DNA of 64,000 nt. It comes from Enterobacter phage KKP_3711. The translations under genes were made by a program, and so were the position numbers. Shown in pieces: positions 219 to 29,908 of this stretch. The notes below the pieces were generated by a model. That model was not told the origin of the DNA. It did not search any database and worked only from the letters and a program-made list of their open reading frames with translations. The stretch lies in the sequence record PP579741.1; one strand, given 5' to 3'. Each line of letters starts with the position of its first letter. The stretch's first letter is position 1.

Positions 219-468
219 TTTTAAATGTTGTAAATCACAAAGAGTATTTACACACTATGGGCAGTTTTTAACATGTGATTGTGGTAAATCTTTTTTCGAC
301 AGTGGTGATGGTTTTTATCGTCGTAGCTGCGGAGAAATGGATATTACTAATCTAGTAGATTCATTTAATTATGAGTGTCATGAATGCGGTAATAAAGAAC
401 CTCTTCATGGTAATAAAGTTTGTGATGTATGTGGTTCTGATCACATACATATAAGAACCGACGATTGA
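169..468 (+). CDS. small Cys-rich zinc-finger-like protein (99 aa)
   Basis: Multiple CxxC/CxC pairs (CDCG, CHECG, CDVCG); stop overlaps start of downstream tRNA. Confidence 0.4.
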   Translation: MMIYLIGQKNMQKLLVNFKCCKSQRVFTHYGQFLTCDCGKSFFDSGDGFYRRSCGEMDITNLVDSFNYECHECGNKEPLHGNKVCDVCGSDHIHIRTDD

Positions 469-532
469 CCGAGTGACTAGGTAAAGGATTGCAAACCCTT
501 TAAGGCTGGTTAAAATCCAGTATCGTCGTCCA
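459..532 (+). tRNA. tRNA-Cys (GCA) candidate, atypical T-loop
   Basis: Perfect 7-bp acceptor CGACGAT/ATCGTCG, discriminator T plus CCA; anticodon loop TTGCAAA; T-loop TTAAAAT non-canonical. Confidence 0.5.
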
Positions 533-534: not shown

Positions 535-674
535 TTACTGAAAGAGTTATCTAATTAACTCAGGCACGCGTAGGAACACAGCCACCGTAATTGAAAGATG
601 TGGCCCGGTTTGGAGAGGTATGCCGCTACACGCTACGGTGCTAACTCCGTCTAGGTGAAAATCCTAGTCAGTAA
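535..674 (+). ncRNA. long tRNA-like element (approx 140 nt) with 7-bp terminal complementarity and T-arm-like hairpin
   Basis: 5' TTACTGA pairs with 3' TCAGTAA; CTAGG-TGAAAAT-CCTAG hairpin next to 3' segment; internal 6-bp hairpin GAGTTA/TAACTC. Confidence 0.3.
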
Positions 675-684
675 TACTAATTTT

Positions 685-760
685 GGACATATCGTATAGT
701 GGTTTATTACGGAGGGCCGTTAACCCTTTTACCCAGGTTCGAATCCTGGTATGTCCGCCA
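685..760 (+). tRNA. tRNA-Asn (GTT)
   Basis: Perfect acceptor GGACATA/TATGTCC, G discriminator, encoded CCA; T-arm CCAGG-TTCGAAT-CCTGG; anticodon stem GAGGG/CCCTT, loop CCGTTAA. Confidence 0.6.
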
Positions 761-778
761 ATTTAACATGAGACCGTT

Positions 779-1294
779 ATGTTTCTACATGATTTAATTA
801 TTAAAAACATGCTTAATAGTAAGGTGTTACCTTCTGTTGATTTTAGTATTACTGCGTATCAAATAGCGTATTTTATGAAAGAATATGTTAGATTAAGCAA
901 TACAATAGGTAGTGCCAAGCATGCTGAACAAATATATAATGCAAAATTAGCTGCGTTATCTTTAGTAAAATATAAAAAAGATAACAATCTAAAAATTGGG
1001 GAAGGTTTTGTATATTTAATCTCTAATCCTGCATGGCCTAACATCTATAAAGTCGGGATGACTACTTCACCTAAAGACAGATTAAAACAATACCAAACTT
1101 ACTCTCCTTTCAGGGACTTTAAACTTCATCATTGGTCTTTTTGGTTTGACAAACGACAAGGTGAAAAATTTATACGACAGCTATCTGATTCGATTAGCCA
1201 TGAGTGGGTTAATATTGAGTCTAAGGAATTACAAAAGCATCTATCTAGGGTTAACACGTTAACAGATATTAATTCTGTACTTAAATATCTATAA
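779..1294 (+). CDS. T5orf172-domain protein (GIY-YIG-like, putative homing-type endonuclease family)
   Basis: Motif GFVYLISNPAWPNIYKVGMTTSPKDRLKQY resembles T5orf172/MUG113 domain; located inside tRNA cluster as in T5-like phages. Confidence 0.5.
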   Translation: MFLHDLIIKNMLNSKVLPSVDFSITAYQIAYFMKEYVRLSNTIGSAKHAEQIYNAKLAALSLVKYKKDNNLKIGEGFVYLISNPAWPNIYKVGMTTSPKDRLKQYQTYSPFRDFKLHHWSFWFDKRQGEKFIRQLSDSISHEWVNIESKELQKHLSRVNTLTDINSVLKYL

Positions 1295-1303
1295 GAAATT
1301 ATT

Positions 1304-1380
1304 GCGACCGGGGCTGGCTCGGTAATGGTACTCCCCTGTCACGGGAGAATATGCGGGTTCGAATCCCGTCGGTCGCGCCA
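1304..1380 (+). tRNA. tRNA-Asp (GTC)
   Basis: Acceptor GCGACCG/CGGTCGC, anticodon stem CTCCC/GGGAG loop CTGTCAC, T-loop TTCGAAT, CCA encoded. Confidence 0.75.
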
Positions 1381-1388
1381 TTTATAAT

Positions 1389-1465
1389 GCTTCCATAGCT
1401 CAACTGGTTAGAGCTACCGCCTCTTAAGCGGAGGGTTATAGGTTCAAGTCCTATTGGGAGTACCA
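1389..1465 (+). tRNA. tRNA-Lys (CTT)
   Basis: Acceptor GCTTCCA/TGGGAGT, D-arm GCTC-AACTGGTTA-GAGC, anticodon loop CTCTTAA, T-loop TTCAAGT, CCA. Confidence 0.7.
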
Positions 1466-1547
1466 AACATCGGAGCAGCGTGATGTACTGCAAAGACCCA
1501 AAGTCCGGGGTGGACTTCTTGATTCAAAGGAGCAGGCATTAATTATC

Positions 1548-1674
1548 GTTCTAGCGTGGCTGAGTGGGGAAGCCAGCTTGCCGAGGGTTGAGATACGGTT
1601 CGATTCCGTAGATAAATGGTACGCTCGTAATTCCGCACAAGTGATAGGAGGTTCAAGTCCTCCCTAGAACGCCA
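1548..1674 (+). ncRNA. tRNA-like element with roughly 50-nt insertion (127 nt); possible intron-containing or stable-RNA gene
   Basis: Perfect acceptor GTTCTAG/CTAGAAC plus G plus CCA; D-arm TGGC-TGAGTGGGGAA-GCCA; T-arm GGAGG-TTCAAGT-CCTCC; 73 nt between D- and T-arms contains a second T-arm-like hairpin TACGG-TTCGATT-CCGTA. Confidence 0.4.
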
Positions 1675-1853: not shown

Positions 1854-2016
1854 AGTAGGCCTTTATGGCTTTGGCGGATACGCAGGAGTGTAAGTAAACG
1901 AAAGTTTACTTATTGAGTAGGTTCCGATAGATCGGCGGGTCTATTCTGGCATTTAAGAGAAGTCTCGCAAACTTCTTTGTCAGCCGTGAGGGTTGAACCT
2001 CCAGGTGGCCTACGCA
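1854..2016 (+). ncRNA. structured noncoding element (approx 160 nt) closed by 7-bp stem GTAGGCC/GGCCTAC
   Basis: Perfect terminal complementarity seen in sequence; ORF-free; lies between tRNA-Gly and tRNA-Thr. Confidence 0.25.
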
Positions 2017-2152
2017 ATAAGTAAATTTAATTCTAGTAATTATAAAGTGATTAGATTATATCGCCATATAAGATATTTGCAAGATCGTAGGAAGTACAGG
2101 TTGGCGACAGGGCTACAATGCGATCATTTAATTACTAGAAATAATTTTATTT

Positions 2153-4409: not shown

Positions 4410-4487
4410 CGCGGGTTAAATCTCTGGTAGAGATTGCAGGTCTCATAAGCCTGAAAGAGGTCGGTTCGATTCCGGCACCCGCTACCA
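4410..4487 (+). tRNA. tRNA with CAU anticodon (Met/fMet/Ile2 type), 1:72 mismatch
   Basis: D-arm ATCT-CTGGTAG-AGAT, anticodon stem CAGGT/GCCTG loop CTCATAA, T-arm GTCGG-TTCGATT-CCGGC, CCA; C1 unpaired with T72. Confidence 0.55.
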
Positions 4488-6318: not shown

Positions 6319-6347
6319 TTGCTAAATATATAAAAAGTTGATATAAT
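6319..6347 (+). promoter_or_regulatory. T5-type early sigma70 promoter
   Basis: TTGCTA-N17-TATAAT then tatataaattgatgg motif and a 9-bp hairpin TTGATGGTA/TACCATCAA at the transcript start. Confidence 0.55.
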
Positions 6348-6610
6348 ATTTATATAAATTGATGGTAGGCAATCTTGTTTACCATCAATAGTTTTCTAAG
6401 GAATTAGTCTGACACTGAACCGGCTACCAAAAAGCACGACCATATCGGTACCCTGCGTGGGCTTGGAATTGGGAAGGACGGGAGTGGTTCTCCGTAAGGT
6501 CTGGTAAACCTAGAGTGTAATGTGTTTGTGAAGAGCGAATATCCAAGTCTGGCTAATGACACTGGGTATTACGCGCACCGGATTAATTGCCTTAGAGAAT
6601 TGGAGGTTTT
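6348..6610 (+). ncRNA. candidate promoter-driven noncoding RNA / long structured 5' leader (approx 260 nt)
   Basis: No ORF between strong promoter and ATG 6611; starts with a hairpin; GC-richer than the flanks. Confidence 0.3.
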
Positions 6611-6880: not shown

Positions 6881-6974
6881 GGAAGAGCAAATCGACTTGG
6901 TGACGAAAACCGCTTGGAAAGTGGCTGACTTGTGAAAAGCAGGCTTGAGAGTTCGAATCTCTCTTCTTCCGCCA
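6881..6974 (+). tRNA. tRNA-Ser (GGA), class II
   Basis: Acceptor GGAAGAG/TTCTTCC, anticodon loop TTGGAAA, long variable arm, T-arm GAGAG-TTCGAAT-CTCTC, CCA. Confidence 0.6.
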
Positions 6975-6986: not shown

Positions 6987-7211
6987 ATGATAAAGAAAAT
7001 CCTAAAACGTTTATTTTGCAAGCATAAATGGGAATTAACTAGAACCATTCATGGTGACGAAGCAATGTTTACGTTTAAAAGATCAGTATACACTTGTTTT
7101 AAATGTAATGCAGTTCAATACTGCAAAGATTATCCTGATGAAATAAAATTAGAGAAATATCTTAAACGATGTGAACAAGTGTCTAGATACAAAGGTATTA
7201 TTGGAAGATAG
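6987..7211 (+). CDS. small Cys-rich protein (74 aa)
   Basis: ATG after RBS aaggat; track ORF 6945 begins inside the tRNA so the later start is preferred; stop overlaps the next tRNA. Confidence 0.45.
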   Translation: MIKKILKRLFCKHKWELTRTIHGDEAMFTFKRSVYTCFKCNAVQYCKDYPDEIKLEKYLKRCEQVSRYKGIIGR

Positions 7212-7287
7212 TGCTCATGGGAGCAAGCAGACTTGAAATCTGTCGCCATCGGTAACGGTGAGGGTTCGATTCCTTTATCTTCCGCCA
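7203..7287 (+). tRNA. tRNA-Ser (TGA), class II
   Basis: Perfect acceptor GGAAGAT/ATCTTCC, anticodon stem GCAGA/TCTGT loop CTTGAAA, long variable arm, T-loop TTCGATT, CCA. Confidence 0.65.
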
Positions 7288-7292
7288 AACTT

Positions 7293-7430
7293 GAGGTATG
7301 CCGGAAATTGGTATACGGGACTACCGAATAGGTTTACTAGGAACATCCACTCCTAGGAATATACCTTAAAAGTGGTTGAGATAAATGGTCTATCTCGTGA
7401 AGGTTCAAATCCTTCTACCTCTCGTCACAA
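7293..7430 (+). ncRNA. tRNA-like / structured RNA region (approx 136 nt) with terminal complementarity, T-arm GAAGG-TTCAAAT-CCTTC and two perfect 6-bp hairpins
   Basis: 5' GAGGTAT pairs with 3' ATACCTT (7361-7367) and partly with CTACCTC after the T-arm; hairpins CTAGGA/TCCTAG and GAGATA/TATCTC. Confidence 0.3.
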
Positions 7431-7539
7431 TGGCTCAAAGAGTAACGGTGCTGTCCAAGCGTTGACTTTCCCGACATCCGTTCGGGTGTAAGCAGCCGGT
7501 AAGTGGCAGAAGAGTTTCTAAGAGCCGTCACAATTGAGA

Positions 7540-7682
7540 ATCATTGCCCGATGAGCCGCCTGTTGGAATAATGTGTTATACAAAGTATAACGCACCAATA
7601 CGCGGACTAACCATCTAGAGTGCCAGGATAGGTAGACGCTAGATGTGGAGGCCTGATCAACCCTCAATGGTTCTCAATTGTG
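7540..7682 (+). ncRNA. structured noncoding element closed by an 18-bp near-perfect inverted repeat
   Basis: CACAATTGAGAATCATTG (7540-7557) pairs with CAATGGTTCTCAATTGTG (7665-7682); internal hairpin GTGTTATAC-AAA-GTATAAC; no ORF. Confidence 0.3.
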
Positions 7683-8229: not shown

Positions 8230-8353
8230 TAAAATCCCTGTTGAGAGTGACGAGGTTAGACCTCTGGTTCAAAGCCCTCTTCGTCTAACTTCCCATACTT
8301 TATGTATGTTCTAGTAGACGACACAAGGTTGTACTCAGCAGGGTGCGCATTAT

Positions 8354-8678: not shown

Positions 8679-9134
8679 ATGTTTAAAGCTCTTCGCAAAA
8701 TGTTTACGGATTGGCTACTGCAAGAGCCTTATGTAGACACTATTACAAAGTCTAAAGATGGTACTACATTAACACAATTGATAACTCCTAGAGCGTTTGG
8801 GAGCGGTAGTTGGAGAATTGAAACTACTGCTGAAGGTCAATGGGGTTCTGTAATAATTTTTGGTATTGAACGAGATCTAGGGAAGTATAAAGACAAAGCC
8901 GTAGAGGCTTTAGAGGGTAGATTGGACAATATTTTCAATCAAGACTCTTTAGATAAAATTGCTATTATTGTGGAAGCAGCTGTAAAACGAAAAGGTTACA
9001 CCGCATTTAAGCACAATGGAAAACCTCATATGGAGTTTGTTAAATACTCTCTAGATCCTAGAGATGTTAAACGATTAAAACAAGCTTTAGTAGAGTATAA
9101 TTTCCTAAAAGATACCACAAAAAAGAAGAGCTAA
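8679..9134 (+). CDS. hypothetical protein (151 aa)
   Basis: ORF followed by terminator hairpin. Confidence 0.5.
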   Translation: MFKALRKMFTDWLLQEPYVDTITKSKDGTTLTQLITPRAFGSGSWRIETTAEGQWGSVIIFGIERDLGKYKDKAVEALEGRLDNIFNQDSLDKIAIIVEAAVKRKGYTAFKHNGKPHMEFVKYSLDPRDVKRLKQALVEYNFLKDTTKKKS

Positions 9135-9160
9135 AGCTCTCCTACTTTCCTTCAATATTG

Positions 9161-9188
9161 CCTTAAACGCCTTGTTTAAGGCTTTTTT
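9161..9188 (+). terminator. rho-independent terminator
   Basis: CCTTAAACG-CCTTG-TTTAAGG hairpin then CTTTTTTG. Confidence 0.5.
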
Positions 9189-9192
9189 GTAT

Positions 9193-9221
9193 TTGCTTTT
9201 CAATCAAAAAGTTGTTATAAT
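9193..9221 (+). promoter_or_regulatory. T5-type early sigma70 promoter
   Basis: TTGCTT-N17-TATAAT then tctttataaattgaggag RBS. Confidence 0.55.
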
Positions 9222-9247
9222 ATCTTTATAAATTGAGGAGAAAGCAA

Positions 9248-9478
9248 ATGCCTAAATATGTGAAAGTTAAATTTATCAAAACTGCTATTAATACCTATAG
9301 CTATGAAATTCCTGAAACCCTTAAAACTGAGCGTTTAGTAATCGGTGAAGCTATTGTGGTGCCTGTAGGCAATGATATGGATTTGAAAGTTGCCTATATT
9401 GCGGGAGTTTCTAATGAATCTAATGTTAGACCAGGTATTAAAATTAAAAAGGCTTATGGCTTAGTAAGGAAAATCTAA
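9248..9478 (+). CDS. hypothetical protein (76 aa)
   Basis: ATG 9248 preferred (RBS gaggagaaagcaa) over track start 9233. Confidence 0.45.
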   Translation: MPKYVKVKFIKTAINTYSYEIPETLKTERLVIGEAIVVPVGNDMDLKVAYIAGVSNESNVRPGIKIKKAYGLVRKI

Positions 9479-9768
9479 TGTGGTTATCACAATGTAATAG
9501 GTGTGGGAATAATACCTTCCAGATTATTGATAAATCTGTATCTGAAAATGGTTTATATATTCTACACAAAGTATCAAAGTGTACTAAATGTAAAGAAGAG
9601 AACTCTATTATCTCTTTCCCTAGAGCACTAGACAGGGACACTTCTCCTACTACAGTACCTAATAAGGGTCTTGCTTGGAAGAGTAACGAGAAGTGCTTAT
9701 TTGAAGGTTTACCGCCAGGAATTTATGGTATTTCATGTCCTTGCTCTAGATGTTCTATAAAATGCTAG
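9478..9768 (+). CDS. Cys-rich zinc-finger-like protein (96 aa)
   Basis: CNRCG ... CTKCK ... CPCSRCSIKC motifs. Confidence 0.45.
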   Translation: MWLSQCNRCGNNTFQIIDKSVSENGLYILHKVSKCTKCKEENSIISFPRALDRDTSPTTVPNKGLAWKSNEKCLFEGLPPGIYGISCPCSRCSIKC

Positions 9769-9775
9769 GAGATTT

Positions 9776-10003
9776 ATGTACGACCCACATCGTGAACGGT
9801 TATACAAGAAACGTTCCAAATACTGGAACATGGGCTGTTTCTATTCCGATAACAAACGTCGTGCTGGAATTGTGTTCCGTACGCCTTGTTTATGTAGTTG
9901 TCCTATGTGTGCTGGAGTTAAAGATAACTCACCTTTACGTTATAAGTTCTCTGATATTAAAAAGTTAGAAAAAGCTAAGGAAGAAATTAATGAAGCTTTT
10001 TGA
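9776..10003 (+). CDS. small Cys-rich protein (75 aa)
   Basis: CLCSCPMCAG motif. Confidence 0.4.
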   Translation: MYDPHRERLYKKRSKYWNMGCFYSDNKRRAGIVFRTPCLCSCPMCAGVKDNSPLRYKFSDIKKLEKAKEEINEAF

Positions 10004-10175
10004 TATTCGATACAAAGGGTTATGGTTAGGCGGTAAGTCATTAGTATTTGCTGAAAATGAAGAACAAGCTTTATCTTTAGTGCGTGAAGATCCTGCTACC
10101 GTAGAATTTGAAAACGTGACTATAGAAGAAATTAAAGCAGAAGGTATCATTCACAACGATAACGGAGATTACTAA
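9990..10175 (+). CDS. hypothetical protein (61 aa)
   Basis: ORF overlapping upstream end; acidic. Confidence 0.4.
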   Translation: MKLFDIRYKGLWLGGKSLVFAENEEQALSLVREDPATVEFENVTIEEIKAEGIIHNDNGDY

Positions 10176-10226
10176 TGCTATATTTTGAGGTAAGACCACA
10201 TTAAGATACTTTAAAGGAGGTACTTA

Positions 10227-10595
10227 ATGTCTAGAACTTATCGTAAGAAATCTGGTGATCGTTACTGGCGAGATAAACATCGTTCTAAATACAACTTCAA
10301 CAGGATTAATCCACGTCGTTATATTAAAGGTAACTTCTGGCACCTGGATGGTGAAGTTATTCCTATGACTCATGAAGAAATTGAAGTTGAAATTCAGGAA
10401 GATATCCTGAAGCATGAGAAGAAAGATGGGTATCTATGGGATTCCGTTTCTAAAAATGTTAAGTGGCACTCTAACAAAATGGTTAGAGGAGCTAACAGGA
10501 TGGAACTTCATCGAGTGATGAAAGATCCAGAAAATTATGACTACAATCGTGACCATGATCTTAGAAAGAAAGGTTTGTGGTGGGTGTATGATTAA
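10227..10595 (+). CDS. hypothetical basic protein (122 aa)
   Basis: RBS aaggagg upstream of ATG. Confidence 0.5.
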   Translation: MSRTYRKKSGDRYWRDKHRSKYNFNRINPRRYIKGNFWHLDGEVIPMTHEEIEVEIQEDILKHEKKDGYLWDSVSKNVKWHSNKMVRGANRMELHRVMKDPENYDYNRDHDLRKKGLWWVYD

Positions 10596-10616
10596 TAAAA
10601 TCAGATAAAGTTTCAA

Positions 10617-10645
10617 TTGCTAAATCCCCGTCATTTTGATATAAT
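10617..10645 (+). promoter_or_regulatory. T5-type early sigma70 promoter embedded in an 11-bp inverted repeat
   Basis: TTGCTA-N17-TATAAT; TCCCCGTCATT ... AATGAACGGGGA flank the -10 and are followed by TTTTTATTATG. Confidence 0.5.
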
Positions 10646-10678
10646 ATTCTTATATTGAAATGAACGGGGATTTTTATT

Positions 10679-10963
10679 ATGTGTAAAGTAAATAAAGAAA
10701 CTGCAACCCTGATTGAACAGTTTGTACATGGTTATATTGCGGGTAGCTGCAACAGCTTTGACGAATCTCTTAATGTGTTGCATTTCTCTTTGACTGAAAA
10801 AGGTATTAAAATTTCTCTAGAAGATTTGGAAATGGAACTTAGCCAAGCACTAGAAGATGCAGAAGTGTTTTGTTGTCCAAATTGTAACTGGTTCTGTTAT
10901 GAACATGATCGTTCTGAAAATGGTGAATTATGCCGTGATTGTGACCCAGATGAGGAAGAATAA
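10679..10963 (+). CDS. Cys-rich acidic protein (94 aa)
   Basis: CCPNCNWFC ... CRDCD motifs. Confidence 0.5.
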   Translation: MCKVNKETATLIEQFVHGYIAGSCNSFDESLNVLHFSLTEKGIKISLEDLEMELSQALEDAEVFCCPNCNWFCYEHDRSENGELCRDCDPDEEE

Positions 10964-11145
10964 TGACTATACAACTTCGATTTAGATTAGCAATATTATC
11001 TGCGCTCATATCAGCTTTATGTTTTGGGGTGCATTTATACACTGGAACTATGTTTCTTTTGGCTTTAACGTGGGTATTTGTTCTTATATCCTACGGTATA
11101 ACTTTTGGTCTAGATATGTATAATAGCTGGAGAGAAGATGACTAA
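10963..11145 (+). CDS. small membrane protein (60 aa)
   Basis: Two hydrophobic segments. Confidence 0.4.
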   Translation: MTIQLRFRLAILSALISALCFGVHLYTGTMFLLALTWVFVLISYGITFGLDMYNSWREDD

Positions 11146-11302
11146 ACTAGAGAAAGCAGCAATTTTATTAATGCTTATAGGTGTAGTTGTTTCCATTTTT
11201 GTAAATCCTCTTAAATTAGCTTTTATTATCTCTATGATTTGTGTTGCTGCTGGATGGATTTGTGTTATTTGTCAACAGATAAAAGGTAGAAAACATGAGT
11301 AG
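11138..11302 (+). CDS. small membrane protein (54 aa)
   Basis: ATG overlapping upstream stop; two predicted TM helices; below ORF-track cutoff. Confidence 0.3.
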   Translation: MTKLEKAAILLMLIGVVVSIFVNPLKLAFIISMICVAAGWICVICQQIKGRKHE

Positions 11303-11873
11303 GTTATATGGACTTCACCCATTAATAGTAGATGCAATTACTGCATCTGACGAGTTAGATGACTTTGTAGTCTGGGCTAGAGGTGGAGATGGTAAATGGG
11401 CGGATCTGTTTGACATGAAAGAGTTTATTCATGTCAATGTATGGTTAGATACTAAACAAGATTGTGTAATGGCAGAAGTTGTGGCAACAGTTCAAGGTTT
11501 TGGAGGAGTGATTAAAGGTAACGCTCTTTGTATTCCTAACTGTCATCTGCAAACTGAAATTATGCAAGTATTAACTATTCTAGAGTTTTTACCTAGAAAT
11601 GATAATATTAATGATCACACTCATAAAGTCCATTTACGTTGGTTGAGAGAAGAAAGAGATCGCAGAGACAAAGAGATAGATGAAATACACGCCTCTTTAG
11701 TAGAGGATGTATCTTTTCTACCGGATGAAGAAGTAGAAGCATTTGTAAGAGATTGTTGTGGCACTTACGGAATTTCTCTAGAAAATTATACAAGTGCTGA
11801 AATCTTCACAGAAGCTGATGCTCTGCTAAAAAGAGTAGCAAGAAAAATTAGAAAAGAACGTAAGGAAGGGTAA
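11295..11873 (+). CDS. hypothetical protein (192 aa)
   Basis: ORF in track. Confidence 0.5.
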   Translation: MSRLYGLHPLIVDAITASDELDDFVVWARGGDGKWADLFDMKEFIHVNVWLDTKQDCVMAEVVATVQGFGGVIKGNALCIPNCHLQTEIMQVLTILEFLPRNDNINDHTHKVHLRWLREERDRRDKEIDEIHASLVEDVSFLPDEEVEAFVRDCCGTYGISLENYTSAEIFTEADALLKRVARKIRKERKEG

Positions 11874-11881
11874 TATTTTAC

Positions 11882-11910
11882 TTGCTAAATACCTCTCCTT
11901 TTGATATAAT
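11882..11910 (+). promoter_or_regulatory. T5-type early sigma70 promoter flanked by an inverted repeat
   Basis: TTGCTA-N17-TATAAT; TACCTCTC ... GAGAGGTA surround the -10 and +1 region. Confidence 0.5.
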
Positions 11911-11939
11911 ATATTTATAAATTAAAGAGAGGTATTTAA

Positions 11940-12245
11940 ATGAAATATTTACTCCTTGTAATTCTAGCTATCGGTTCTGCACATGCTTCCACCAAAGTAG
12001 AAGTTAAAAACAATCGAATCACTGTGCAAGAAAATGGTATCCGTCAGGACTACGGTACAGTTCGTAAAGTAGAAACTACACCATCTGGACAAGTTAAAAT
12101 CTATTCTAATAAAAACTTTTCAGGTGCAGCAGTTACTATTGATCGTTTCGGCAACACCGATGTTCAACGTTATAACAAGAGTTCTGTTTCTAGTTGTACC
12201 TATAACTGTCAGTTAGATCTAGAAGATGAAGAGGACGAAGAATGA
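11940..12245 (+). CDS. secreted/periplasmic protein with acidic C-terminus (101 aa)
   Basis: Signal peptide MKYLLLVILAIGSAHAS; C-terminus EDEEDEE. Confidence 0.5.
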   Translation: MKYLLLVILAIGSAHASTKVEVKNNRITVQENGIRQDYGTVRKVETTPSGQVKIYSNKNFSGAAVTIDRFGNTDVQRYNKSSVSSCTYNCQLDLEDEEDEE

Positions 12246-12550
12246 TTCAACATCGTTTTAACCTTAACGATCGCATTAAATTTAAACCTACTATTCTTAC
12301 ACTAGAGTTTCTTCTAAGAAACCATGAAGATTTTTGGTATAATGCGATGGAGAATGCTAAGTCTCTTCATCAGGTAAAACTCTTTGAGAAATTTGCTGAA
12401 GAATATGCAATGCCACGAGTAAATGACGAAGGTTATATGTCATTTGCTGTTTGGGAATTTATGGGGAAATTTGGAAGTATTATGACCCCTGGAACAAATC
12501 CCCAAGACTATTTCTTGGACTTCTATTTAGAAATACCAGAAGTTCAGTAA
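12242..12550 (+). CDS. hypothetical protein (102 aa)
   Basis: ATGA overlap with upstream ORF. Confidence 0.5.
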   Translation: MIQHRFNLNDRIKFKPTILTLEFLLRNHEDFWYNAMENAKSLHQVKLFEKFAEEYAMPRVNDEGYMSFAVWEFMGKFGSIMTPGTNPQDYFLDFYLEIPEVQ

Positions 12551-12667
12551 ACGATCCTACTACCTTAGGACTATGTGCAACCTACTAGAGTTACGGCGGA
12601 GGAGTCGTGCCCTCCAAGGCGATGGAAGTGGTTGGGTGATTGCTAATCATTAACTAATGAGGAATAA

Positions 12668-12952
12668 ATGACTTTACAACTATTTGTAATATCACATATT
12701 TTAGTAGGTTTGATTACAGCATTATACTTTAAGTTTGCAGTAGTTGATAAATTATCTAAAAATAAAATAGACAAAATAGAAAAATATATCGACACAATTT
12801 CCGACTATAATACAAAAGCATTTATCGAAGTATATTGCAATCAGACACAATGTCAGTTTCTTTTTAAATTCTTAACCCTCATGTTGTTTATGTGCGGTAT
12901 TTTGGCTCCTGTAGGTTTCTACAAACTAAATAAGGAGTTGGGAGAAATTTAA
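12668..12952 (+). CDS. membrane protein (94 aa)
   Basis: N- and C-terminal hydrophobic helices. Confidence 0.45.
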   Translation: MTLQLFVISHILVGLITALYFKFAVVDKLSKNKIDKIEKYIDTISDYNTKAFIEVYCNQTQCQFLFKFLTLMLFMCGILAPVGFYKLNKELGEI

Positions 12953-13653
12953 TGCGTATTATTTCTAAATTTTTCGACGTTTATGACTTACAGCATAGTT
13001 TGCGTGATGAAACCCGTGTTTGGGAACGTAAAACCGAAACTATTAAAGTCCGTAAACTAGACGGTGAAGATTATGGGTACATGACTCCGTTTTACCGTTC
13101 TGCGGAAGTTATCCTAGAATATTTCTACTTCTGTGGTCAGGTTTATCCGTTATTCACTATTACCCCTATGTGGGGTACTTATGAAAACAAAAAAGTAAAA
13201 ACATTCTTATTCGATCGAGCTTTAGAAGTCTGTAAAGAATACGGTATCACTGGTATAGGTTATATGTACAAAGGTGATACTCTAGAAAAACAGTTTGCTT
13301 CTCTAGAAGCTAAAGCAAAAGAAGATATGGTTGCAGTGCAGAAGATGTTTGATAAGTTCAATCATCCTCTAGGAGTTTACAGCTGGGTTCGTAAAGCATT
13401 GCCAGATGAAGATTCTACACAAGAAGTACCATGTCATATTCTTACCTTTAACCCACAGTTAATGAATTTTTATCCGTGGCAAGAAATTGATAGTAACGTT
13501 TATCGTTTCCATCAGCTCATTGAGCAGTATCTGAGCGGAGTTATTGGTCACTTTGAGGGTACTCCAGTGACTGTGACAACTTCAGATAAAGATCGTTTAC
13601 TTGCAAAAGGTTTTGATGCAGTAACATCTTTCAGGAACATGAAGCGTGGTTAA
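12952..13653 (+). CDS. hypothetical protein (233 aa)
   Basis: ORF in track. Confidence 0.5.
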   Translation: MRIISKFFDVYDLQHSLRDETRVWERKTETIKVRKLDGEDYGYMTPFYRSAEVILEYFYFCGQVYPLFTITPMWGTYENKKVKTFLFDRALEVCKEYGITGIGYMYKGDTLEKQFASLEAKAKEDMVAVQKMFDKFNHPLGVYSWVRKALPDEDSTQEVPCHILTFNPQLMNFYPWQEIDSNVYRFHQLIEQYLSGVIGHFEGTPVTVTTSDKDRLLAKGFDAVTSFRNMKRG

Positions 13654-14083
13654 TATAGCCTGGATATGGATCAAGGCTAACAAAAAGCTAGTAGCAGTTA
13701 TACTAGCTTTTTTATTGGTTTTTGGTTATATCCTTTACAATACACTAACAATTGCAGGGTTAAGGAGTGACCTAGGAACTGCACAATCTAGTTTACAGGC
13801 TGCAACTGAAAGAGTTAACGTTCTAGAAACTGGATACACTGATTTGGTTAAGAAAACTAATCAGATGCAGTTAGATCTTAATCGCTATTTCTTTATTAAT
13901 AAAGAAAATGAGGCTAAGTATCAGCAATCTTTGGATCTATTAAATGCTCTAAGAAATAGAGAAGACCAAGTAACTTCTGATCCAGTATCTTTAGCTAGAG
14001 ATATTAAGGCAGAGGTTGAGGATTTTGAGAATCAATACTCATGTTTAGTTGGAAATCTGGAGTCTTGCTCACAGCTGCCTTAA
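13646..14083 (+). CDS. i-spanin candidate (Rz-like)
   Basis: N-terminal TM helix plus coiled-coil; overlaps downstream lipoprotein ORF. Confidence 0.45.
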   Translation: MVNIAWIWIKANKKLVAVILAFLLVFGYILYNTLTIAGLRSDLGTAQSSLQAATERVNVLETGYTDLVKKTNQMQLDLNRYFFINKENEAKYQQSLDLLNALRNREDQVTSDPVSLARDIKAEVEDFENQYSCLVGNLESCSQLP

Positions 14084-14385
14084 TCCTTGTTGGTTGCAGC
14101 GGTAGAACTCCTGTCGATACTTCCTCTCTAGAACAACCAAAACAAGTTCATCCTGATTGGCCTAGATCTCCAGCTCGTTGCTCAGTACCGGATTACAAAG
14201 TAGGCACTGATAGTCAGATGGGATCTGTTGTAATGATACCTTATAAACAGTACCTAAATCAACGAGGATGTGAAAGAGATCGCCTACGTTATACATCTTC
14301 ATTAACAGGTTTAGCTTGTTTCTACAGACAGGATATTAAAGAACCTATCTGTCAATACTATTATCCACAAAAAGAGGAAAAATAA
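14041..14385 (+). CDS. o-spanin candidate (Rz1-like lipoprotein)
   Basis: Signal peptide with lipobox LVGC; Pro-rich; overlaps i-spanin 3' end. Confidence 0.45.
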   Translation: MFSWKSGVLLTAALILVGCSGRTPVDTSSLEQPKQVHPDWPRSPARCSVPDYKVGTDSQMGSVVMIPYKQYLNQRGCERDRLRYTSSLTGLACFYRQDIKEPICQYYYPQKEEK

Positions 14386-15116
14386 TGACATTATACATTG
14401 GATTGTGTGGGGAAGCTGGAGCAGGTAAAGATACCGCTGGGATTATACTTAAAGATATCTTTCTAAAAGATTCTTTCTATTCTTTTAAAAGCATTATGGT
14501 AACTAGTTTTGCTGCTCCTGTTTATGCTTTAGCTGAAGCATTGGTTAATGGCTCTCTAAAAGATAGAGCAAGTAAAGAAGTATTTCAAAAATACGATATT
14601 ACTCAACAGTTCTTAGAGTATATGAATGAAGTATATTGCTTTTATCAGCTAGATCAGTATAAAGATTTTCCCGATGCTTGGAACGAGTTTTTCCACAAAT
14701 CTCTTGTAGAATACACACATATTTCTCACAATGAAAAGGCAGAGTTTGCACTTCATATCTCCCCTAGACGTTTACTAGAACTTGTAGGGACAGAATTTGG
14801 TAGAGAAATTCTTGATACCAATGTTTGGTTAAAAGTAGTAAGTGATTCTGTAAAACGCAACGATGCAAAACTCGTCGTAGTTACGGATGTTCGTTTTGAC
14901 AACGAAGCATTATTCATTAGAAATCAAGATAAAGGGATGGTTATTGAAATTGTAGCCCCTGTTAATGAACATGCAACTAAGTCAACGCATGCCTCAGCTA
15001 AAGGTATCAACCAATCTTTGGTGAGTCATAAAATTATTAATAAAAAGAATGGAAAAGAGCAGTTTATCAAAGAACTTGAGAACTTTAACTGCCGTTTTGT
15101 ACGAGGACTTTATTAA
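14385..15116 (+). CDS. P-loop NTPase, deoxynucleoside-monophosphate-kinase-like
   Basis: Walker A GLCGEAGAGKDT near N-terminus; size about 243 aa similar to phage dNMP kinases. Confidence 0.45.
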   Translation: MTLYIGLCGEAGAGKDTAGIILKDIFLKDSFYSFKSIMVTSFAAPVYALAEALVNGSLKDRASKEVFQKYDITQQFLEYMNEVYCFYQLDQYKDFPDAWNEFFHKSLVEYTHISHNEKAEFALHISPRRLLELVGTEFGREILDTNVWLKVVSDSVKRNDAKLVVVTDVRFDNEALFIRNQDKGMVIEIVAPVNEHATKSTHASAKGINQSLVSHKIINKKNGKEQFIKELENFNCRFVRGLY

Positions 15117-19865: not shown

Positions 19866-20249
19866 ATGAATAACGCTTACTTAATCATCCATAACAATGT
19901 TGTTTGTGGTACTCGTGCCGTCGAAATGGGTATAACTGAAGAAAAGTATAAATCTCTTTCTGAAAAAGAACAGCAACATTATATGGAAGAAGCTGCCTGG
20001 GAGTATGCTGACGTATACCCTGAAGAAATAGATGGTCGTGTATCTATCGTTGTTAGTCTAGGTTTAGTAGGCTGTGACACCCATGTAGATACTGATGTGG
20101 ATAATTTAGAGGATTGGGATGCAATGGATGTTGCGGAACAAAACTCTATGGTTCGTCAGGCTTTCTGGGAGGCTGTGGAATGTCACGTAGTTTTTGAGCC
20201 TAATGATGCCGAAGCCGAAAAACATACTAATTGGGGGTACAGAGGTTAA
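19866..20249 (+). CDS. hypothetical protein (127 aa)
   Basis: ORF in track. Confidence 0.5.
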   Translation: MNNAYLIIHNNVVCGTRAVEMGITEEKYKSLSEKEQQHYMEEAAWEYADVYPEEIDGRVSIVVSLGLVGCDTHVDTDVDNLEDWDAMDVAEQNSMVRQAFWEAVECHVVFEPNDAEAEKHTNWGYRG

Positions 20250-20617
20250 TGGAAAGAGAATTTGATCGTTATGTTGTAATCAAAAACAGTCACGCAAAAC
20301 ATGCTTTGACTGAAGATGAAATTAAAGAGCTGTATCGCTTAGGTATGAAGTGTGCTGCGTGGCGAAAACAGAATGGGAAAATCCCGTTTAAATGTGTTGT
20401 AGTAGAACATGATTGGCCAGAATACGAGAGAGTCTGGAAAATGATTGAAGATCGAGTAGACGCCAAAGAAAATAGTTTTACTACAGATCGATATGCTGAA
20501 GGCTATGCTGATGCTTCCAGAGCATTCGTAGATAAAGGATTTTCTTTACTGCGGGGTATTGATTCATATTGTACTGGTTGGAACACTTACATGTGGAGCA
20601 CTAAAAATGAAAGTTAA
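20231..20617 (+). CDS. hypothetical protein (128 aa)
   Basis: Overlaps neighbours by short junctions. Confidence 0.5.
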   Translation: MGVQRLMEREFDRYVVIKNSHAKHALTEDEIKELYRLGMKCAAWRKQNGKIPFKCVVVEHDWPEYERVWKMIEDRVDAKENSFTTDRYAEGYADASRAFVDKGFSLLRGIDSYCTGWNTYMWSTKNES

Positions 20618-21203
20618 ATTCTGGGCTGACTTACATTTAGATCACCCCAAAGCATATACATTCCGTCCATGGTTTAAATCCATGGAAGAACATGATGAAT
20701 GGATTGCGGATACTCTAGCTGAAGCTATCGGTCCTCGCACAATTATTAAATTACTAGGAGATGCTTCTGTAGGCCGCAAAGGGCTGGAGACATTACAGAA
20801 GATCTTTAGTGATGCAAAATGCCAGAGTCTATTAGTTATGGGGAACCATGATGCAGAACGTCAAGGTATTAAGATGCGTGATCTAGTAGACGTCTATACT
20901 GATGTTCAAGCACTTACTAAACAAGGCAAAGAGTTCTGGTTATCACATGCACCTATTCATGAAAGTGAATTAAGAGGCAAAAAGAACATTCACGGACATA
21001 TCCACCAAGATGTTATTCGTGATCCACGATATATCAACGTTTGTGTTGATTATGCTAAAACACCTGTATCTTTGGAAGATATTGTCAGTGGCCACTACAC
21101 CAGCCATGATAAATATGTTGAGCCTTCTACTGGTAAAGTAAAGAAAATCAGTGAAGCACCAGCGACTCCTATGTCGGTTCATCAACCATTTATTCAGTGT
21201 TAA
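20607..21203 (+). CDS. metallophosphoesterase
   Basis: ATG 20607 preferred (MKVKFWADLHLDH); GDxxVG, GNHD and GHIH motifs. Confidence 0.6.
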   Translation: MKVKFWADLHLDHPKAYTFRPWFKSMEEHDEWIADTLAEAIGPRTIIKLLGDASVGRKGLETLQKIFSDAKCQSLLVMGNHDAERQGIKMRDLVDVYTDVQALTKQGKEFWLSHAPIHESELRGKKNIHGHIHQDVIRDPRYINVCVDYAKTPVSLEDIVSGHYTSHDKYVEPSTGKVKKISEAPATPMSVHQPFIQC

Positions 21204-21226
21204 AACTAGAAAATTAATTTTTGTAG

Positions 21227-21255
21227 TTGCTAAACATCGAAAACTTCTGTATAAT
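21227..21255 (+). promoter_or_regulatory. T5-type early sigma70 promoter
   Basis: TTGCTA-N17-TATAAT then ttcataaattgatg. Confidence 0.55.
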
Positions 21256-21289
21256 ATATTCATAAATTGATGAAAAGGAAACGAAAAAT

Positions 21290-21586
21290 ATGACTACTTC
21301 CGTAACTTCTAAAATGACTAAAGACGAACTGGTTAATGTTCTGATCATCCTTATGGATATCCCTAAAGCGGCAGAAAGTGGTTTTCGTACTTCAGTAACT
21401 AAACTTCCTCATGCAGTTCTCGTAACTATGTACGATGCATGGGTTAAAGCTAATAACAAGTGTGAACTTGCTAAGCGTGAGGCTCAGTTTGCTAAAGAAC
21501 GTGAAAAAGTAACAGATTCTCGTAATCATACTCTTGAACGTGATCTGGCTCGTGCAACCCGTAAACTGAAGGAACGCAAAGTATGA
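21290..21586 (+). CDS. hypothetical protein (98 aa)
   Basis: RBS aaaggaaacg. Confidence 0.5.
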   Translation: MTTSVTSKMTKDELVNVLIILMDIPKAAESGFRTSVTKLPHAVLVTMYDAWVKANNKCELAKREAQFAKEREKVTDSRNHTLERDLARATRKLKERKV

Positions 21587-21816
21587 AAGTAGAAAATAAA
21601 AACGCTGTTCATAGTTTAATGCTTGGTATTGCTTTTGGCTTCTCTATTATATCTGTTGTGACACTAGGGTTTACTGGACATAAAATCGGTAAACTTATTG
21701 AAGCTAACAATGCATTAGTTAAGAAAGTTGATAGGCAAGAGAAAATCATCCAGTTATTAGTAGATAATAATAACTATATAATTGGTAAGTTCGCTAAACT
21801 AGAGGACAAAAAGTAA
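21583..21816 (+). CDS. membrane protein (77 aa)
   Basis: TM helix; ATGA overlap. Confidence 0.45.
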   Translation: MKVENKNAVHSLMLGIAFGFSIISVVTLGFTGHKIGKLIEANNALVKKVDRQEKIIQLLVDNNNYIIGKFAKLEDKK

Positions 21817-22134
21817 ATGAATATTGCAATTCTAGGGTTAGTATTTCTAGTATTTTTGCTGTGGTATCGAGCGAATGCTCTGGAGAAACGAAATAAAACT
21901 CTAGAGTTGGCAATAGAGACATTAAATAATGATCTGACTGCTTTAGGTGATAAGCATAATCAAATGTGTCAGACATTTGTTGAATATACTGGGGCTCAGA
22001 AGCATACTTTTGAACAGATTCAAGTTGCTTTGTTTGCTTCTTCCGAACTTATGCAGATGATTGCAATAGATCAAGACAATACTAATGATCGGACTTCAGC
22101 GATTGAAGAAGTATTGGGTATTAAAGGAAAGTAA
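21817..22134 (+). CDS. membrane/coiled-coil protein (105 aa)
   Basis: N-terminal TM then coiled-coil. Confidence 0.45.
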   Translation: MNIAILGLVFLVFLLWYRANALEKRNKTLELAIETLNNDLTALGDKHNQMCQTFVEYTGAQKHTFEQIQVALFASSELMQMIAIDQDNTNDRTSAIEEVLGIKGK

Positions 22135-22413
22135 ATGGTTGTTACTTCAACTGTGATTTCAACGGCGGTAGCAGTAATATTTATTATTCTGCTATTCGCC
22201 TACATTATCTGGCTTCGTTATCAGCTTCGAAACGTTATTTTAACAAACAATGGACTATACTCCAAGCTAGAGGAAGTTAGTGTAGACAGAGACAGATTGC
22301 TCGCTGCTCTAGATAACAAAATTATTAAGAACAAAGAGGTAGAAGATATGATTTCTTCTGCTGAGAATCTTTCTAACGCGCAGAAAGTTTACATGATATC
22401 GAGGCTAAAATGA
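22135..22413 (+). CDS. membrane protein (92 aa)
   Basis: N-terminal TM helix. Confidence 0.45.
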   Translation: MVVTSTVISTAVAVIFIILLFAYIIWLRYQLRNVILTNNGLYSKLEEVSVDRDRLLAALDNKIIKNKEVEDMISSAENLSNAQKVYMISRLK

Positions 22414-22664
22414 TTGGTTTCTTTATTTTTCTAGCAATCTTCATTTTCTTGGGTGTGTATGCAACCATCACATCTAAATCAAAATTTACGGTAAATAATG
22501 TTCTGGTTAAGTCTGTACTGTGCTTGCTGTACGTCCTTAATGGCATTCTGTTCATTGGCTATGCAGGTTGCGCCTTAGTCCTTAAAGTCCCACACACTAT
22601 TGTGGAAAACCTAGCAGATACAGAAACTCAACTAGAGAGGGAGATCAAGAGTCGTGAAACTTAA
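22410..22664 (+). CDS. membrane protein (84 aa)
   Basis: Two TM helices. Confidence 0.45.
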   Translation: MIGFFIFLAIFIFLGVYATITSKSKFTVNNVLVKSVLCLLYVLNGILFIGYAGCALVLKVPHTIVENLADTETQLEREIKSRET

Positions 22665-22968
22665 GTATGAAGAACTCTTAAAACTCAGTGGATTAGCTAA
22701 ACTAGCTAATGATATTGATCTAGCTAAAAAATTAAATGATATGGCCGAAGAAGAGTGGAATCCTGGTACTTCAATGCCCCCTCTTTATCAAACTATTATC
22801 ATTCAGAAACGTACAGAAAATAAAGAGATAAAAGTACGACGTTTAGATTTACTTCCTGCGTACTCTGGCAAAGGTGAGAAATCTTACAGCAAGGTTCAGT
22901 TTGTAGATGTAGATTCCAATGAAATGATTGAATTATCTGCAAACGCCTTTGAATGGCGTAGAGCATGA
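22654..22968 (+). CDS. hypothetical protein (104 aa)
   Basis: ORF in track. Confidence 0.5.
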   Translation: MKLKYEELLKLSGLAKLANDIDLAKKLNDMAEEEWNPGTSMPPLYQTIIIQKRTENKEIKVRRLDLLPAYSGKGEKSYSKVQFVDVDSNEMIELSANAFEWRRA

Positions 22969-23014
22969 GTACTTTCCTAATCCTTTATTCACAAGAAATT
23001 GTTTGGAGCCTTAT

Positions 23015-23206
23015 ATGTTTAACCGTATTATTACTAATTATACTTTATTTTGGCTTAAACCGCTAAAATTTGAACGTGCAGTTGGTGTTATCGACTGGAC
23101 TGTGATTTGGTCTTTTATTTTTATCCTTGTGGGTCTTTCTACTCACGATGACGTTCCTTACCTGTTTATGGAACTGCGTAATTCACTCATTGCTGGAGGT
23201 TATTAA
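23015..23206 (+). CDS. small membrane protein (63 aa)
   Basis: Internal ATG of track ORF 22928 chosen to avoid a 40-nt overlap; TM helix. Confidence 0.3.
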   Translation: MFNRIITNYTLFWLKPLKFERAVGVIDWTVIWSFIFILVGLSTHDDVPYLFMELRNSLIAGGY

Positions 23207-23661
23207 TGGATTTGTCTGAGATTCTGAATGGTTATTTGAACGAAGAGAAGCAGTTTAATGACTGTTTTATCCAGATGTTTGTTAATTCCGATAACTCTCT
23301 GGCATTTGCAGATTTTAACCGTGTTCATGACACTAATTTTACTCATAAACAGATCATTAAAGCAATTCAAGATCTGACAGGTAGTAAAGTAGTTAAATAC
23401 TCTATCCCAGAATACGAACCTAGTCTGTTTGAAGATTTTAAAGAGGCTTATGAATTTGGTCTCTATAAAGTAGCTAAAGACTGGAATTTCTATCTTCACA
23501 CCATTTATGGTAAAGTATTACCGCGTGGCGAACTGTTAGGCTGGATTGCTAAGCAACATCCTAAACGTGTTCAAGGCTCTTTCCTTCCAACTCATGACGG
23601 GAATTTATATGCAAAAGAAGAATCAGTACCACGACCTAGTGCAGGAAGCGAAGAAGCTTGA
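23206..23661 (+). CDS. hypothetical protein (151 aa)
   Basis: ORF in track. Confidence 0.5.
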   Translation: MDLSEILNGYLNEEKQFNDCFIQMFVNSDNSLAFADFNRVHDTNFTHKQIIKAIQDLTGSKVVKYSIPEYEPSLFEDFKEAYEFGLYKVAKDWNFYLHTIYGKVLPRGELLGWIAKQHPKRVQGSFLPTHDGNLYAKEESVPRPSAGSEEA

Positions 23662-23680
23662 TATTAACTATCTAGCACAC

Positions 23681-23950
23681 ATGAATACGGTGGCAGAAGT
23701 CGCCGATTCATCTTACGATAAAATGGCTGCTAGTGAATGTCGCGCTCTAGGTATTTTAATGACAATGGCCTTGAGTATAGATGAAGAGACAGAGGGCATG
23801 AGTTATGAAGATAAATATACCATTCTTCAAACTTATATCACAGATTATGTTCAGGCTCGTTCAGATACTCTAGAACAGGTTATGCTTACTAGAAAGACAG
23901 ATACGGCTCTTTTAGAGTCCGCCCAACTTGAACCTAACCAGAAACATTAA
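23681..23950 (+). CDS. hypothetical protein (89 aa)
   Basis: Downstream ATG of track ORF 23546, which otherwise overlaps the previous gene by 116 nt. Confidence 0.4.
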   Translation: MNTVAEVADSSYDKMAASECRALGILMTMALSIDEETEGMSYEDKYTILQTYITDYVQARSDTLEQVMLTRKTDTALLESAQLEPNQKH

Positions 23951-23957
23951 TCTCCTG

Positions 23958-23986
23958 TTGACAAAAATAAAATAGTTTGATATAGT
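23958..23986 (+). promoter_or_regulatory. sigma70 promoter
   Basis: TTGACA-N17-TATAGT; followed by the agctacaagcct leader motif. Confidence 0.5.
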
Positions 23987-24027
23987 CATGAGAGTAGCAT
24001 GAAGCTACAAGCCTATAGGAGTTTATA

Positions 24028-24327: not shown

Positions 24328-24333
24328 TATTAC

Positions 24334-24365
24334 AGCCCAGCTCACCAGAGTCTGGGCTTTTTTGT
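24334..24365 (+). terminator. rho-independent terminator
   Basis: AGCCCAG ... CTGGGCT hairpin plus TTTTTT. Confidence 0.6.
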
Positions 24366-24383
24366 CTGTATAGGATTTGCACA

Positions 24384-27150: not shown

Positions 27151-27156
27151 TATACA

Positions 27157-27184: not shown

Positions 27185-27197
27185 TGGAAAATTTTTG

Positions 27198-29900: not shown

Positions 29901-29908
29901 TATTTGAG

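Follow-up and report, generated by a model that had tools for sequence, protein, structure and literature searches.

The genome record of phage T5 (NC_005859) contains eight misc_RNA genes in the transfer RNA (tRNA) region, among them rna1 (144 nucleotides, nt) and rna2 (125 nt), described as "tRNA-like stable RNA with unknown functions", and rnaIV, rnaI, rnaIII and rna2H, described as "stable RNA with unknown functions". The stable RNAs of the T4 and T5 tRNA clusters have long been annotated without an assigned function (RefSeq notes; PMC3014915), and a literature search for a published function of those of T5 gave only reference-list citations (Ksenzenko et al. 1982, PMID 6285979, in PMC8084836). 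The subject of this analysis is a 64,000-nt stretch of Enterobacter phage KKP_3711 (PP579741.1; hereafter the window); it belongs to a divergent T5-like phage and comprises the tRNA gene region. Three elements on its plus strand, element 1 (535-677), element 2 (1548-1677) and element 3 (7292-7426), represent three distinct stable non-coding RNA families built on a tRNA frame, and elements 2 and 3 are orthologues of T5 RNA2 and RNA1, respectively. A fourth, element 4 (conserved part at about 1901-2029, plus strand), harbours the T5 RNAIV orthologue, which is an ordinary RNA of several hairpins. Elements 2, 3 and 4 are already-known RNAs in a new phage; element 1 is, judging from sequence comparison, an additional unannotated family, new here and present also outside Demerecviridae.

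The species 1 and species 2 RNAs of phage T4 (rnaC and rnaD, 139 and 119 nt, respectively) are stable RNAs encoded at the end of the phage tRNA cluster. In rnaC, a canonical T arm is located beside the 3' end, with a long hairpin just before it, and the terminal helix contains two U.U mismatches. The roles of these RNAs are unknown (PMC3014915). Homology to rnaC or rnaD is detected neither by sequence nor with the covariance models described below: the RNA2 model yields 14.6 bits (E 0.2) on rnaC, and the models of element 1 and RNA1 yield nothing. The T4 species 1 RNA is an analogue, not a relative.

The tRNA-like domain of transfer-messenger RNA (tmRNA) and YrlA RNA likewise do not decode and combine an acceptor/T-arm module with other domains; the ends of YrlA form a Ro-binding stem, not an acceptor. 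ARAGORN finds no tmRNA in the elements, the Rfam tmRNA model matches only their T hairpins (3.6-4.1 bits), and the YrlA model (RF02553) does not match them, its matches (~21 bits) being on ordinary tRNAs only. The same design, an acceptor, T and D frame with a cargo at the anticodon position, is that of the engineered tRNA scaffold, in which, as Ponchon and Dardel are said to have described in 2007, a foreign RNA replaces the anticodon arm and is stably expressed in E. coli; that scaffold is artificial, whereas the RNAs described here are natural and conserved. The engineered frame confers processing and nuclease resistance and, by analogy, the frame of the phage RNAs may work in the same way. 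This is not a new kind of system; what is new is the covariation-supported consensus structures, the single design common to the three tRNA-like RNAs and their absence from Rfam, which make a small, long-standing puzzle more tractable.

A tRNA frame common to three RNA families

Elements 1-3 follow a common plan: an acceptor helix of 6-7 base pairs (bp), a 2-nt linker, a D or D-like hairpin, 0-1 nt, a helix in place of the anticodon stem, which ends not in a 7-nt loop but in a folded insert, a variable segment (an arm of 19 nt in RNA1, but only 8 nt in element 1 and 4 nt in RNA2), a 5-bp T arm and the 3' strand of the acceptor. The acceptor helix is stacked on the T arm with tRNA-like junction spacing, and a structured domain of ~57-70 nt replaces the anticodon arm. 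None of the three has a conserved anticodon loop, which makes codon reading impossible, and a 7-nt loop with U33 and a conserved anticodon is not found in any of them. The first-pass annotation of this DNA, made from the sequence alone, placed all four elements in one class of tRNA-like elements with large internal insertions. The common design holds for elements 1-3, but these are three unrelated sequence families, and element 4 is not tRNA-like. The suggestion of tRNA-derived stable RNAs, made in the same annotation along with a proposed comparison with the T5 RNAs, is supported: elements 2 and 3 match the T5 tRNA-like stable RNAs, and elements 2, 3 and 4 align to rna2, rna1 and rnaIV. Identity of the window to the T5 stable RNAs is 77.5-94%, and the elements are 77-97% identical to sequences from hundreds of phages.

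Covariance models were built for element 1 (R1), RNA2 (R2) and RNA1 (R3) and used to align all collected homologues, including distant ones from Erwinia phage KEY and Pectobacterium phage My1 for RNA2, from My1 for RNA1 and from Mydovirus phages for element 1. In the MAFFT alignments, the 5' end was misplaced in the Mydovirus copies of element 1, as was the inner hairpin in RNA2, and the model-fitted alignments were counted instead; such alignments favour the structure of the model, but whole-helix swaps in distant members are seen even so. The tRNA-type four-way junction is supported by compensatory base changes in all three RNAs. In RNA2, 98.9% of the alignment cells are paired and 20 of the 26 pairs are changed on both sides; the respective values are 98.8% and 16 of 35 for RNA1, and 97.3% and 14 of 37 for element 1. 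None of 500 shuffles reaches these values in any of the three families, and sliding the partners by 1-3 columns leaves 26-51% of the cells paired. The acceptor is wholly swapped in RNA2 (GUUCUAG/CUAGAAC in the window, UACGGGG/UCCCGUA in Sugarland, AGACAAU/AUUGUCU in KEY) and in element 1 (UUACUGA/UCAGUAA in the window, UUGUCUA/UAGACAA in Mydovirus). In more than 400 phage genomes, selection on the structure of the T5-type RNAs is strong.

The acceptor/T-arm pattern alone is weak evidence; it is the covariation that shows elements 1-3 to be real. A strict scan for a 7-bp acceptor and a T arm at 100-175 nt gives four matches on the plus strand, compared with ~0.6 expected per strand, and two of the four lie outside the elements of the first-pass annotation and look like chance (one is inside an open reading frame, ORF). 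Single-sequence folding z-scores of the elements are modest (-1.6 to -2.5). Elements 1-3 do not reach the threshold of any Rfam family, whether the whole window is searched at gathering thresholds, 9 kilobases (kb) of it at E <= 10, or the elements singly.

The tRNA model of Rfam (RF00005, gathering threshold 29 bits) aligns to element 3 from end to end, albeit at 22.1 bits, below the threshold, with 58 nt replacing the 17-nt anticodon arm; it matches neither element 1 nor element 2, not even in searches of these elements singly. R2, built from RNA2 sequences only, finds ordinary tRNAs at 20-35 bits. The top matches of R3 after the RNA1 homologues are tRNA-Leu genes (31-39 bits), the tRNA-Leu(UAG) of the window among them, and one tRNA-Ser is also found (L019 5138-5224, 30.2 bits). 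By this test of sequence and structure, in which R2 and R3 find ordinary tRNAs and element 3 is aligned over its full length by the Rfam tRNA model, RNA1 and RNA2 are tRNA-derived.

Homologues of T5 RNA2 and RNA1

Element 2 (homologue of T5 RNA2, T5s06) has a 7-bp acceptor (1548-1554/1664-1670), a D arm (1557-1561/1571-1575), a T arm (1647-1651/1659-1663) with the canonical loop UUCAAGU, and an encoded GCCA at 1671-1674 where T5 has GACA. The 7-bp helix, canonical D and T arms and encoded CCA that had been read from the sequence of 1548-1674 are thus all borne out, and so is the location of some 50 extra nt at the anticodon loop position: a covarying 5-bp stem (1576-1580/1638-1642) encloses an insert of 57 nt. 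The insert consists of an inner T-loop hairpin (1595-1598/1606-1609, loop UUCGAUU), AAAUGG and CUCGUAAUUCCGCA. Across the family, the stem of the inner hairpin covaries from ACGG/CCGU to CUCG/CGAG, and AAUGG and CUCGUAA(U/G)UCCGCA are invariant. The window is 77.5% identical to T5 rna2 over 1549-1667, the lengths agree, and R2 scores 157.5 bits on the window and 108.7 bits on T5. RNA2 is present in 465 phage records (blastn, E <= 1e-5, here and for the other T5 RNAs).

ARAGORN predicts a tRNA-Arg(CCG) at 1549-1618, inside RNA2. This prediction is false: its "anticodon stem" pairs with 1638-1642 by covariation, and the anticodon varies. A separate observation is that the inner (1596-1608) and the 3' (1649-1661) T hairpins each share 13 identical bases with T arms of neighbouring tRNAs (4462-4474 and 1440-1452; tRNA-Met and tRNA-Lys(CUU)), which would agree with RNA2 having arisen from parts of tRNAs.

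Element 3 (homologue of T5 RNA1, T5s03) has a frame like that of type II tRNA-Leu. The acceptor of 6 bp (7293-7298 GAGGTA / 7416-7421 TACCTC) is flanked by U.U, and the D stem (7301-7303/7316-7318) carries the loop GAAAUUGGUAUA. The anticodon position is occupied by a three-stem arm (7319-7324/7372-7377, 7330-7332/7364-7366 and 7337-7342/7351-7356) with the apical loop ACAUCCAC (7343-7350), the conserved loop across RNA1 being A(A)CAUCC. A long variable arm (7378-7383/7391-7396) and a canonical T arm (7399-7403/7411-7415) follow. For this element, first delimited as 7293-7430 with 7-bp termini, the canonical T arm stands, but the acceptor is 6 bp and the end is near 7421-7426. The likeness to type II tRNA-Leu comprises the D arm CCG-GAAUUGGUAGA-CGG, the long variable arm and the T arm; RNA1 differs in that it lacks an anticodon stem-loop and a CCA, that its acceptor is of 6 bp with U.U at 1-72, and that its discriminator is variable. 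The identity between window positions 7297-7541 and T5 rna1 plus rnaI is 82%, and that of element 3 alone is 94%, with agreement in length; R3 scores 155.6 bits on T5 RNA1, and homologues are present in 492 phage records.

These loci are often left blank in genome records or covered by spurious "hypothetical proteins". Several GenBank genomes (H82, H83, H89, H104, H121, H149 and H160) have a "hypothetical protein" over RNA1 or RNA2, and the covariation argues that these are mis-called RNA genes.

Element 1, a family absent from T5

Element 1 has no counterpart in T5, UTK0010, My1 or KEY by alignment or by model R1. Its acceptor is of 7 bp (535-541 TTACTGA / 668-674 TCAGTAA), and it contains a D-like hairpin (544-549/556-561) and, at the anticodon-stem position, a 10-bp helix with one bulge (563-567+569-573 / 633-637+638-642), with inner hairpins at 581-585/600-604 and 606-609/622-625 and the invariant core AUGCCGCUACACGCUACGG at 620-638. 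A 5-bp T-type arm (651-655/663-667) lies directly next to the 3' strand of the acceptor. Its loop is UGAAAAU, not the canonical UUCRANN: U and A are kept at the first and fifth positions, UUC is not. No CCA is encoded. Thus, the 7-bp helix and the T-type arm adjoining its 3' strand, noted earlier for 535-674, hold, but the description of the T arm as canonical does not.

Element 1 is found in 219 phage records and, in those listed, is unannotated and flanked by tRNA-Cys and tRNA-Asn, as it is in the window. Klebsiella phage vB_KpnM_VIK251 and a few relatives (Vequintavirinae, Mydovirus) have it as well, in their case between two tRNA-Ser genes, and R1 scores 104 bits on the Mydovirus copies. 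An R1 search for tRNAs finds none. In a metagenome pattern search, element 1 is detected on five contigs, all of the ordinary Demerecviridae type. Two other sets of matches were rejected: more than 120 IMG/VR loci match a 14-mer of the core, all by chance, R1 finding nothing in the 100 searched, and a 17-mer of the core has 43 matches in GTDB genomes of unrelated GC-rich bacteria, about the chance number, again with nothing found by R1, so that element 1 is not host-derived.

One further copy (L011 922-1055, IMG/VR UViG 2706796127; 87 bits) has the 3' two-thirds intact, but unrelated sequence in the 5' third, in place of the D-like hairpin and of the long helix's 5' strand; this copy may be decaying or recombined. 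Element 1 also contains a 12-codon frame (620-658; AUG CCG CUA CAC GCU ACG GUG CUA ACU CCG UCU AGG UGA) just downstream of GGAGAGG, which is in frame in a Mydovirus copy too (L002 ~1530-1568). The frame is probably a coincidence because the substitutions track helix pairing, not codon positions; for the same reason, and given that ARAGORN and Rfam lend it no support, a tmRNA-like reading of this frame was rejected.

Element 4, a homologue of T5 RNAIV

The conserved part of element 4, its 3' two-thirds at about 1901-2029, is 93.9% identical to T5 rnaIV (T5s05), which it matches in length, and is present in 407 phage records; it is not tRNA-like. The element had been described as 1854-2016 closed by GTAGGCC/GGCCTAC. 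Both strings are present (1855-1861 and 2007-2013), but the closing helix is a different one in the relatives: in the 19 related sequences it uses a second copy, GTAGGTTCC at 1917-1925, which pairs with 2004-2013 and encloses three hairpins. No T arm adjoins the 3' strand of element 4. Only ~1901-2029 is widely conserved, 1854-1900 being kept in a minority of relatives. The structure of RNAIV is conserved, with only three covarying pairs at low sequence diversity.

In T5 and most relatives, RNA2 and RNAIV abut, whereas in the window a tRNA-Gly(GCC) and ~150 nt are inserted between them (1680-1900). The ~150-nt insertion is kept in a minority of relatives only. A segment at 1892-1901 (GTAAGTAAAC) pairs with the conserved GTTTACTTAT (1906-1915).

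Proposed role and alternative explanations

The favoured and probable explanation is that elements 1-3 are stable RNAs in which the tRNA frame serves processing and stability and the insert is the active part, in an accessory role. The RNAs would be transcribed inside polycistronic tRNA transcripts, and the frame would make them substrates of host tRNA maturation, with RNase P acting at the 5' end, trimming at the 3' end and CCA where present. RNase P and the 3'-end enzymes recognise the stacked 12-bp acceptor/T helix with its elbow. Given this form of a maturation-enzyme substrate and the precedent of the tRNA scaffold, the RNAs are probably cut from tRNA precursors and stabilised by the frame, with the insert as the functional part. 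Shielded from decay by the frame, they would accumulate as discrete stable species, and the insert with its invariant loops would be the working part, most likely binding a host or phage factor rather than decoding. Aminoacylation is doubtful, judging from the variable discriminator and from CCA being encoded only in some RNA2 lineages.

The role would not be essential on laboratory E. coli. The T5 deletion mutants T5-123 (deletion 29191-32442) and T5Mos (deletion 30661-38625) are viable (PMC11464382). By the NC_005859 annotation, with which the tRNA coordinates of that paper agree, the first deletion spans RNA1 and the second spans RNA2 and RNAIV; the viability of these mutants suggests that the role is accessory. 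In cells carrying PARIS, infection is not rescued by fragments covering RNA1 (PMC11464382).

Several points weigh against this explanation. Element 1 appears tRNA-shaped by architecture only, tRNA ancestry lacking a model match. RNA1 as annotated in T5 is longer than element 3 by 3 nt at the 5' end and 12 nt at the 3' end. CCA is never encoded in RNA1 or element 1 and is encoded in RNA2 in some lineages only (the window, UTK0010, Sugarland and KEY), and the discriminator base varies, so that a strictly tRNA-like 3' end is not assured. The RNA ends, CCA status and abundance rest on the annotation of T5. No partner for the inserts was found, and the 64-kb window contains no antisense target of at least 13 nt beyond T-arm look-alikes and one match that lies in paired stems (the acceptor 5' strand and the D-like stem).

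A bolder version, tentative and rather unlikely as stated, is that the tRNA frame is, in T5-like phages and in some Klebsiella myoviruses, a natural delivery scaffold for modules that inhibit or decoy host factors in a conflict with the host over tRNAs and translation. The modules would replace the anticodon arm and be matured and stabilised by the host tRNA machinery, and their targets could be, for example, defence nucleases, toxins, or enzymes that bind tRNA at its elbow or acceptor end. If this is true, element 1, common to two phage subfamilies, is a mobile module.

Alternatively, the RNAs could be chargeable tRNA mimics or decoys for tRNA-targeting defences, e.g., charged by LeuRS or SerRS, tmRNA-like, or acting as a sponge for nucleases and toxins directed at the acceptor end or elbow of tRNAs. 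The tRNA-Leu-type D arm and long variable arm kept in RNA1, the NCCA encoded by RNA2 in several lineages, and the 12-codon frame of element 1, which follows GGAGG and is kept in the Mydovirus copy, are compatible with such a role, as is the fact that T5 tRNAs are known counter-defence tools (PMC11464382, PMC11555353). It is nevertheless unlikely, given that the discriminator is not conserved, that CCA is absent in RNA1 and element 1, that neither ARAGORN nor the Rfam tmRNA model calls these RNAs, and that the changes in the element 1 frame follow helix pairing rather than codon positions; a decoy role for anticodon nucleases is impossible without an anticodon loop.

Another possibility is that the elements are only processing punctuation, the tRNA-like fold recruiting RNase P and 3' nucleases to free the neighbours (RNAIV, RNAI, messenger RNAs). 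The arrangement in T5, where RNA2 abuts RNAIV, and RNA1 abuts RNAI, RNAIII and tRNA-His without gaps, fits this idea, and the order is the same in relatives. However, punctuation requires only a minimal acceptor/T helix and leaves inserts of 58-70 nt with invariant loops and covarying stems unexplained, and element 1 sits between two tRNAs that need no extra cut site. As the sole function, punctuation therefore has a small probability.

That the elements are decaying tRNA pseudogenes or relics of fused tRNAs without a function of their own is quite improbable. In its favour, the tRNA regions of T5-like phages are mosaics with homing endonuclease genes, each of the two T-arm hairpins of RNA2 has 13 nt in common with the T arm of a neighbouring tRNA, one copy of element 1 (L011) has a disrupted 5' half, and the T5 deletion mutants are viable (PMC11464382). 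Relics, however, would not be expected to show what is seen here, namely, helices kept by compensatory changes across genera and two phage subfamilies, invariant insert loops, and conservation far exceeding that of the adjacent coding DNA.

Finally, the suggestion in the first-pass annotation that these are intron-containing tRNA genes, in which the extra 50-60 nt are spliced out to give a functional tRNA, is extremely improbable. In elements 2 and 3, with a frame otherwise like that of a tRNA, the insert does take precisely the place of the anticodon loop, and ARAGORN calls a tRNA-Arg(CCG) at 1549-1618, but the would-be anticodon of RNA2 is CCG, GCG, GCU or UCG among orthologues and position 33 is C, not U, four of the five pairs between the stem called by ARAGORN and 1638-1642 are changed on both sides, conservation extends to the inserts, whose own helices covary and whose loops are invariant, no Rfam intron family matches at E <= 10 (9 kb, and each element alone), bacterial group I introns are far larger than the inserts of 57-70 nt, and T5 annotates the full-length, unspliced species of 125 and 144 nt as RNAs.

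Experiments by deletion, pull-down and end mapping can be aimed at the consensus structures and invariant loops, in a period in which phage tRNAs are emerging as counter-defence tools.

Gene context and other features of the window

The first 8.4 kb of the window contain 21-22 tRNA genes on the plus strand (ARAGORN and Rfam), and the tRNA region matches that of hundreds of T5-like phages of Salmonella, Escherichia, Klebsiella, Yersinia and Pectobacterium. Positions 20000-32000 (12 kb) have at most 2% coverage against the phage collection (megablast), and positions 9000-15000 (6 kb) at most 12% coverage at ~72% identity (blastn). Thus, the protein-coding DNA at 9000-32000 is barely alignable to the phages of the collection, whereas the RNAs of the tRNA region are 77-97% identical to those of hundreds of them. 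This contrast in conservation would indicate that selection on the RNAs is very strong or, alternatively, that modules of the tRNA region are exchanged.

All four elements are on the same strand as the tRNA genes and 5-100 nt away from them, in agreement with the earlier remark that they lie beside ordinary tRNAs. Upstream of element 1, at a distance of 5 nt, is tRNA-Cys(GCA) (459-529, plus strand; Rfam 43.7 bits), annotated as tRNA-Cys in relatives; it is missed by ARAGORN, and its 5' end overlaps the stop codon of the ORF at 169-468. Downstream, 10 nt from the acceptor 3' strand, is tRNA-Asn(GUU) (685-760, plus strand; ARAGORN and Rfam). The surroundings of element 3 have the same gene order as T5 (tRNA-Ser(UGA), RNA1, RNAI, ..., tRNA-His), as does the position of RNAIV after RNA2: tRNA-Ser(UGA) (7203-7287, plus strand) is 5 nt upstream of element 3, and a homologue of T5 RNAI, identified by alignment (7427-7541, plus strand), abuts it as in T5. 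The segment at 7546-7679, the position of RNAIII in T5, has no T5 match, yet it folds well (z = -3.8).

A scan for promoters and terminators, chance-level overall, finds no strong (10/12) promoter match or terminator-like site beside any of the four elements; weak 9/12 promoter matches are at 489-516, just upstream of element 1, and on the minus strand at 2082-2055. Elsewhere, the segment at 6319-6439 has a match to T5 promoter P13b and to part of RNA2H, the RNA of that promoter; it contains a 14-bp hairpin (6358-6389) downstream of a near-consensus promoter (TTGCTA-17-TATAAT, extended -10 TG).

A type II tRNA-like gene is located at 6881-6970. It has the acceptor GGAAGAG/CUCUUCC followed by GCCA, the loop UUGGAAA (anticodon GGA, Ser), a long variable arm, a canonical T arm and an odd D region. 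Homologues are present in many T5-like phages; ARAGORN misses the gene, and Rfam gives only 25.4 bits (to tRNA-Sec). Between tRNA-Arg(ACG) and tRNA-Gln(CUG), the non-coding segment at 8230-8353 has a strong predicted fold (z = -2.9) with a T-loop-like GGUUCAAAGCC and is possibly a further stable RNA.

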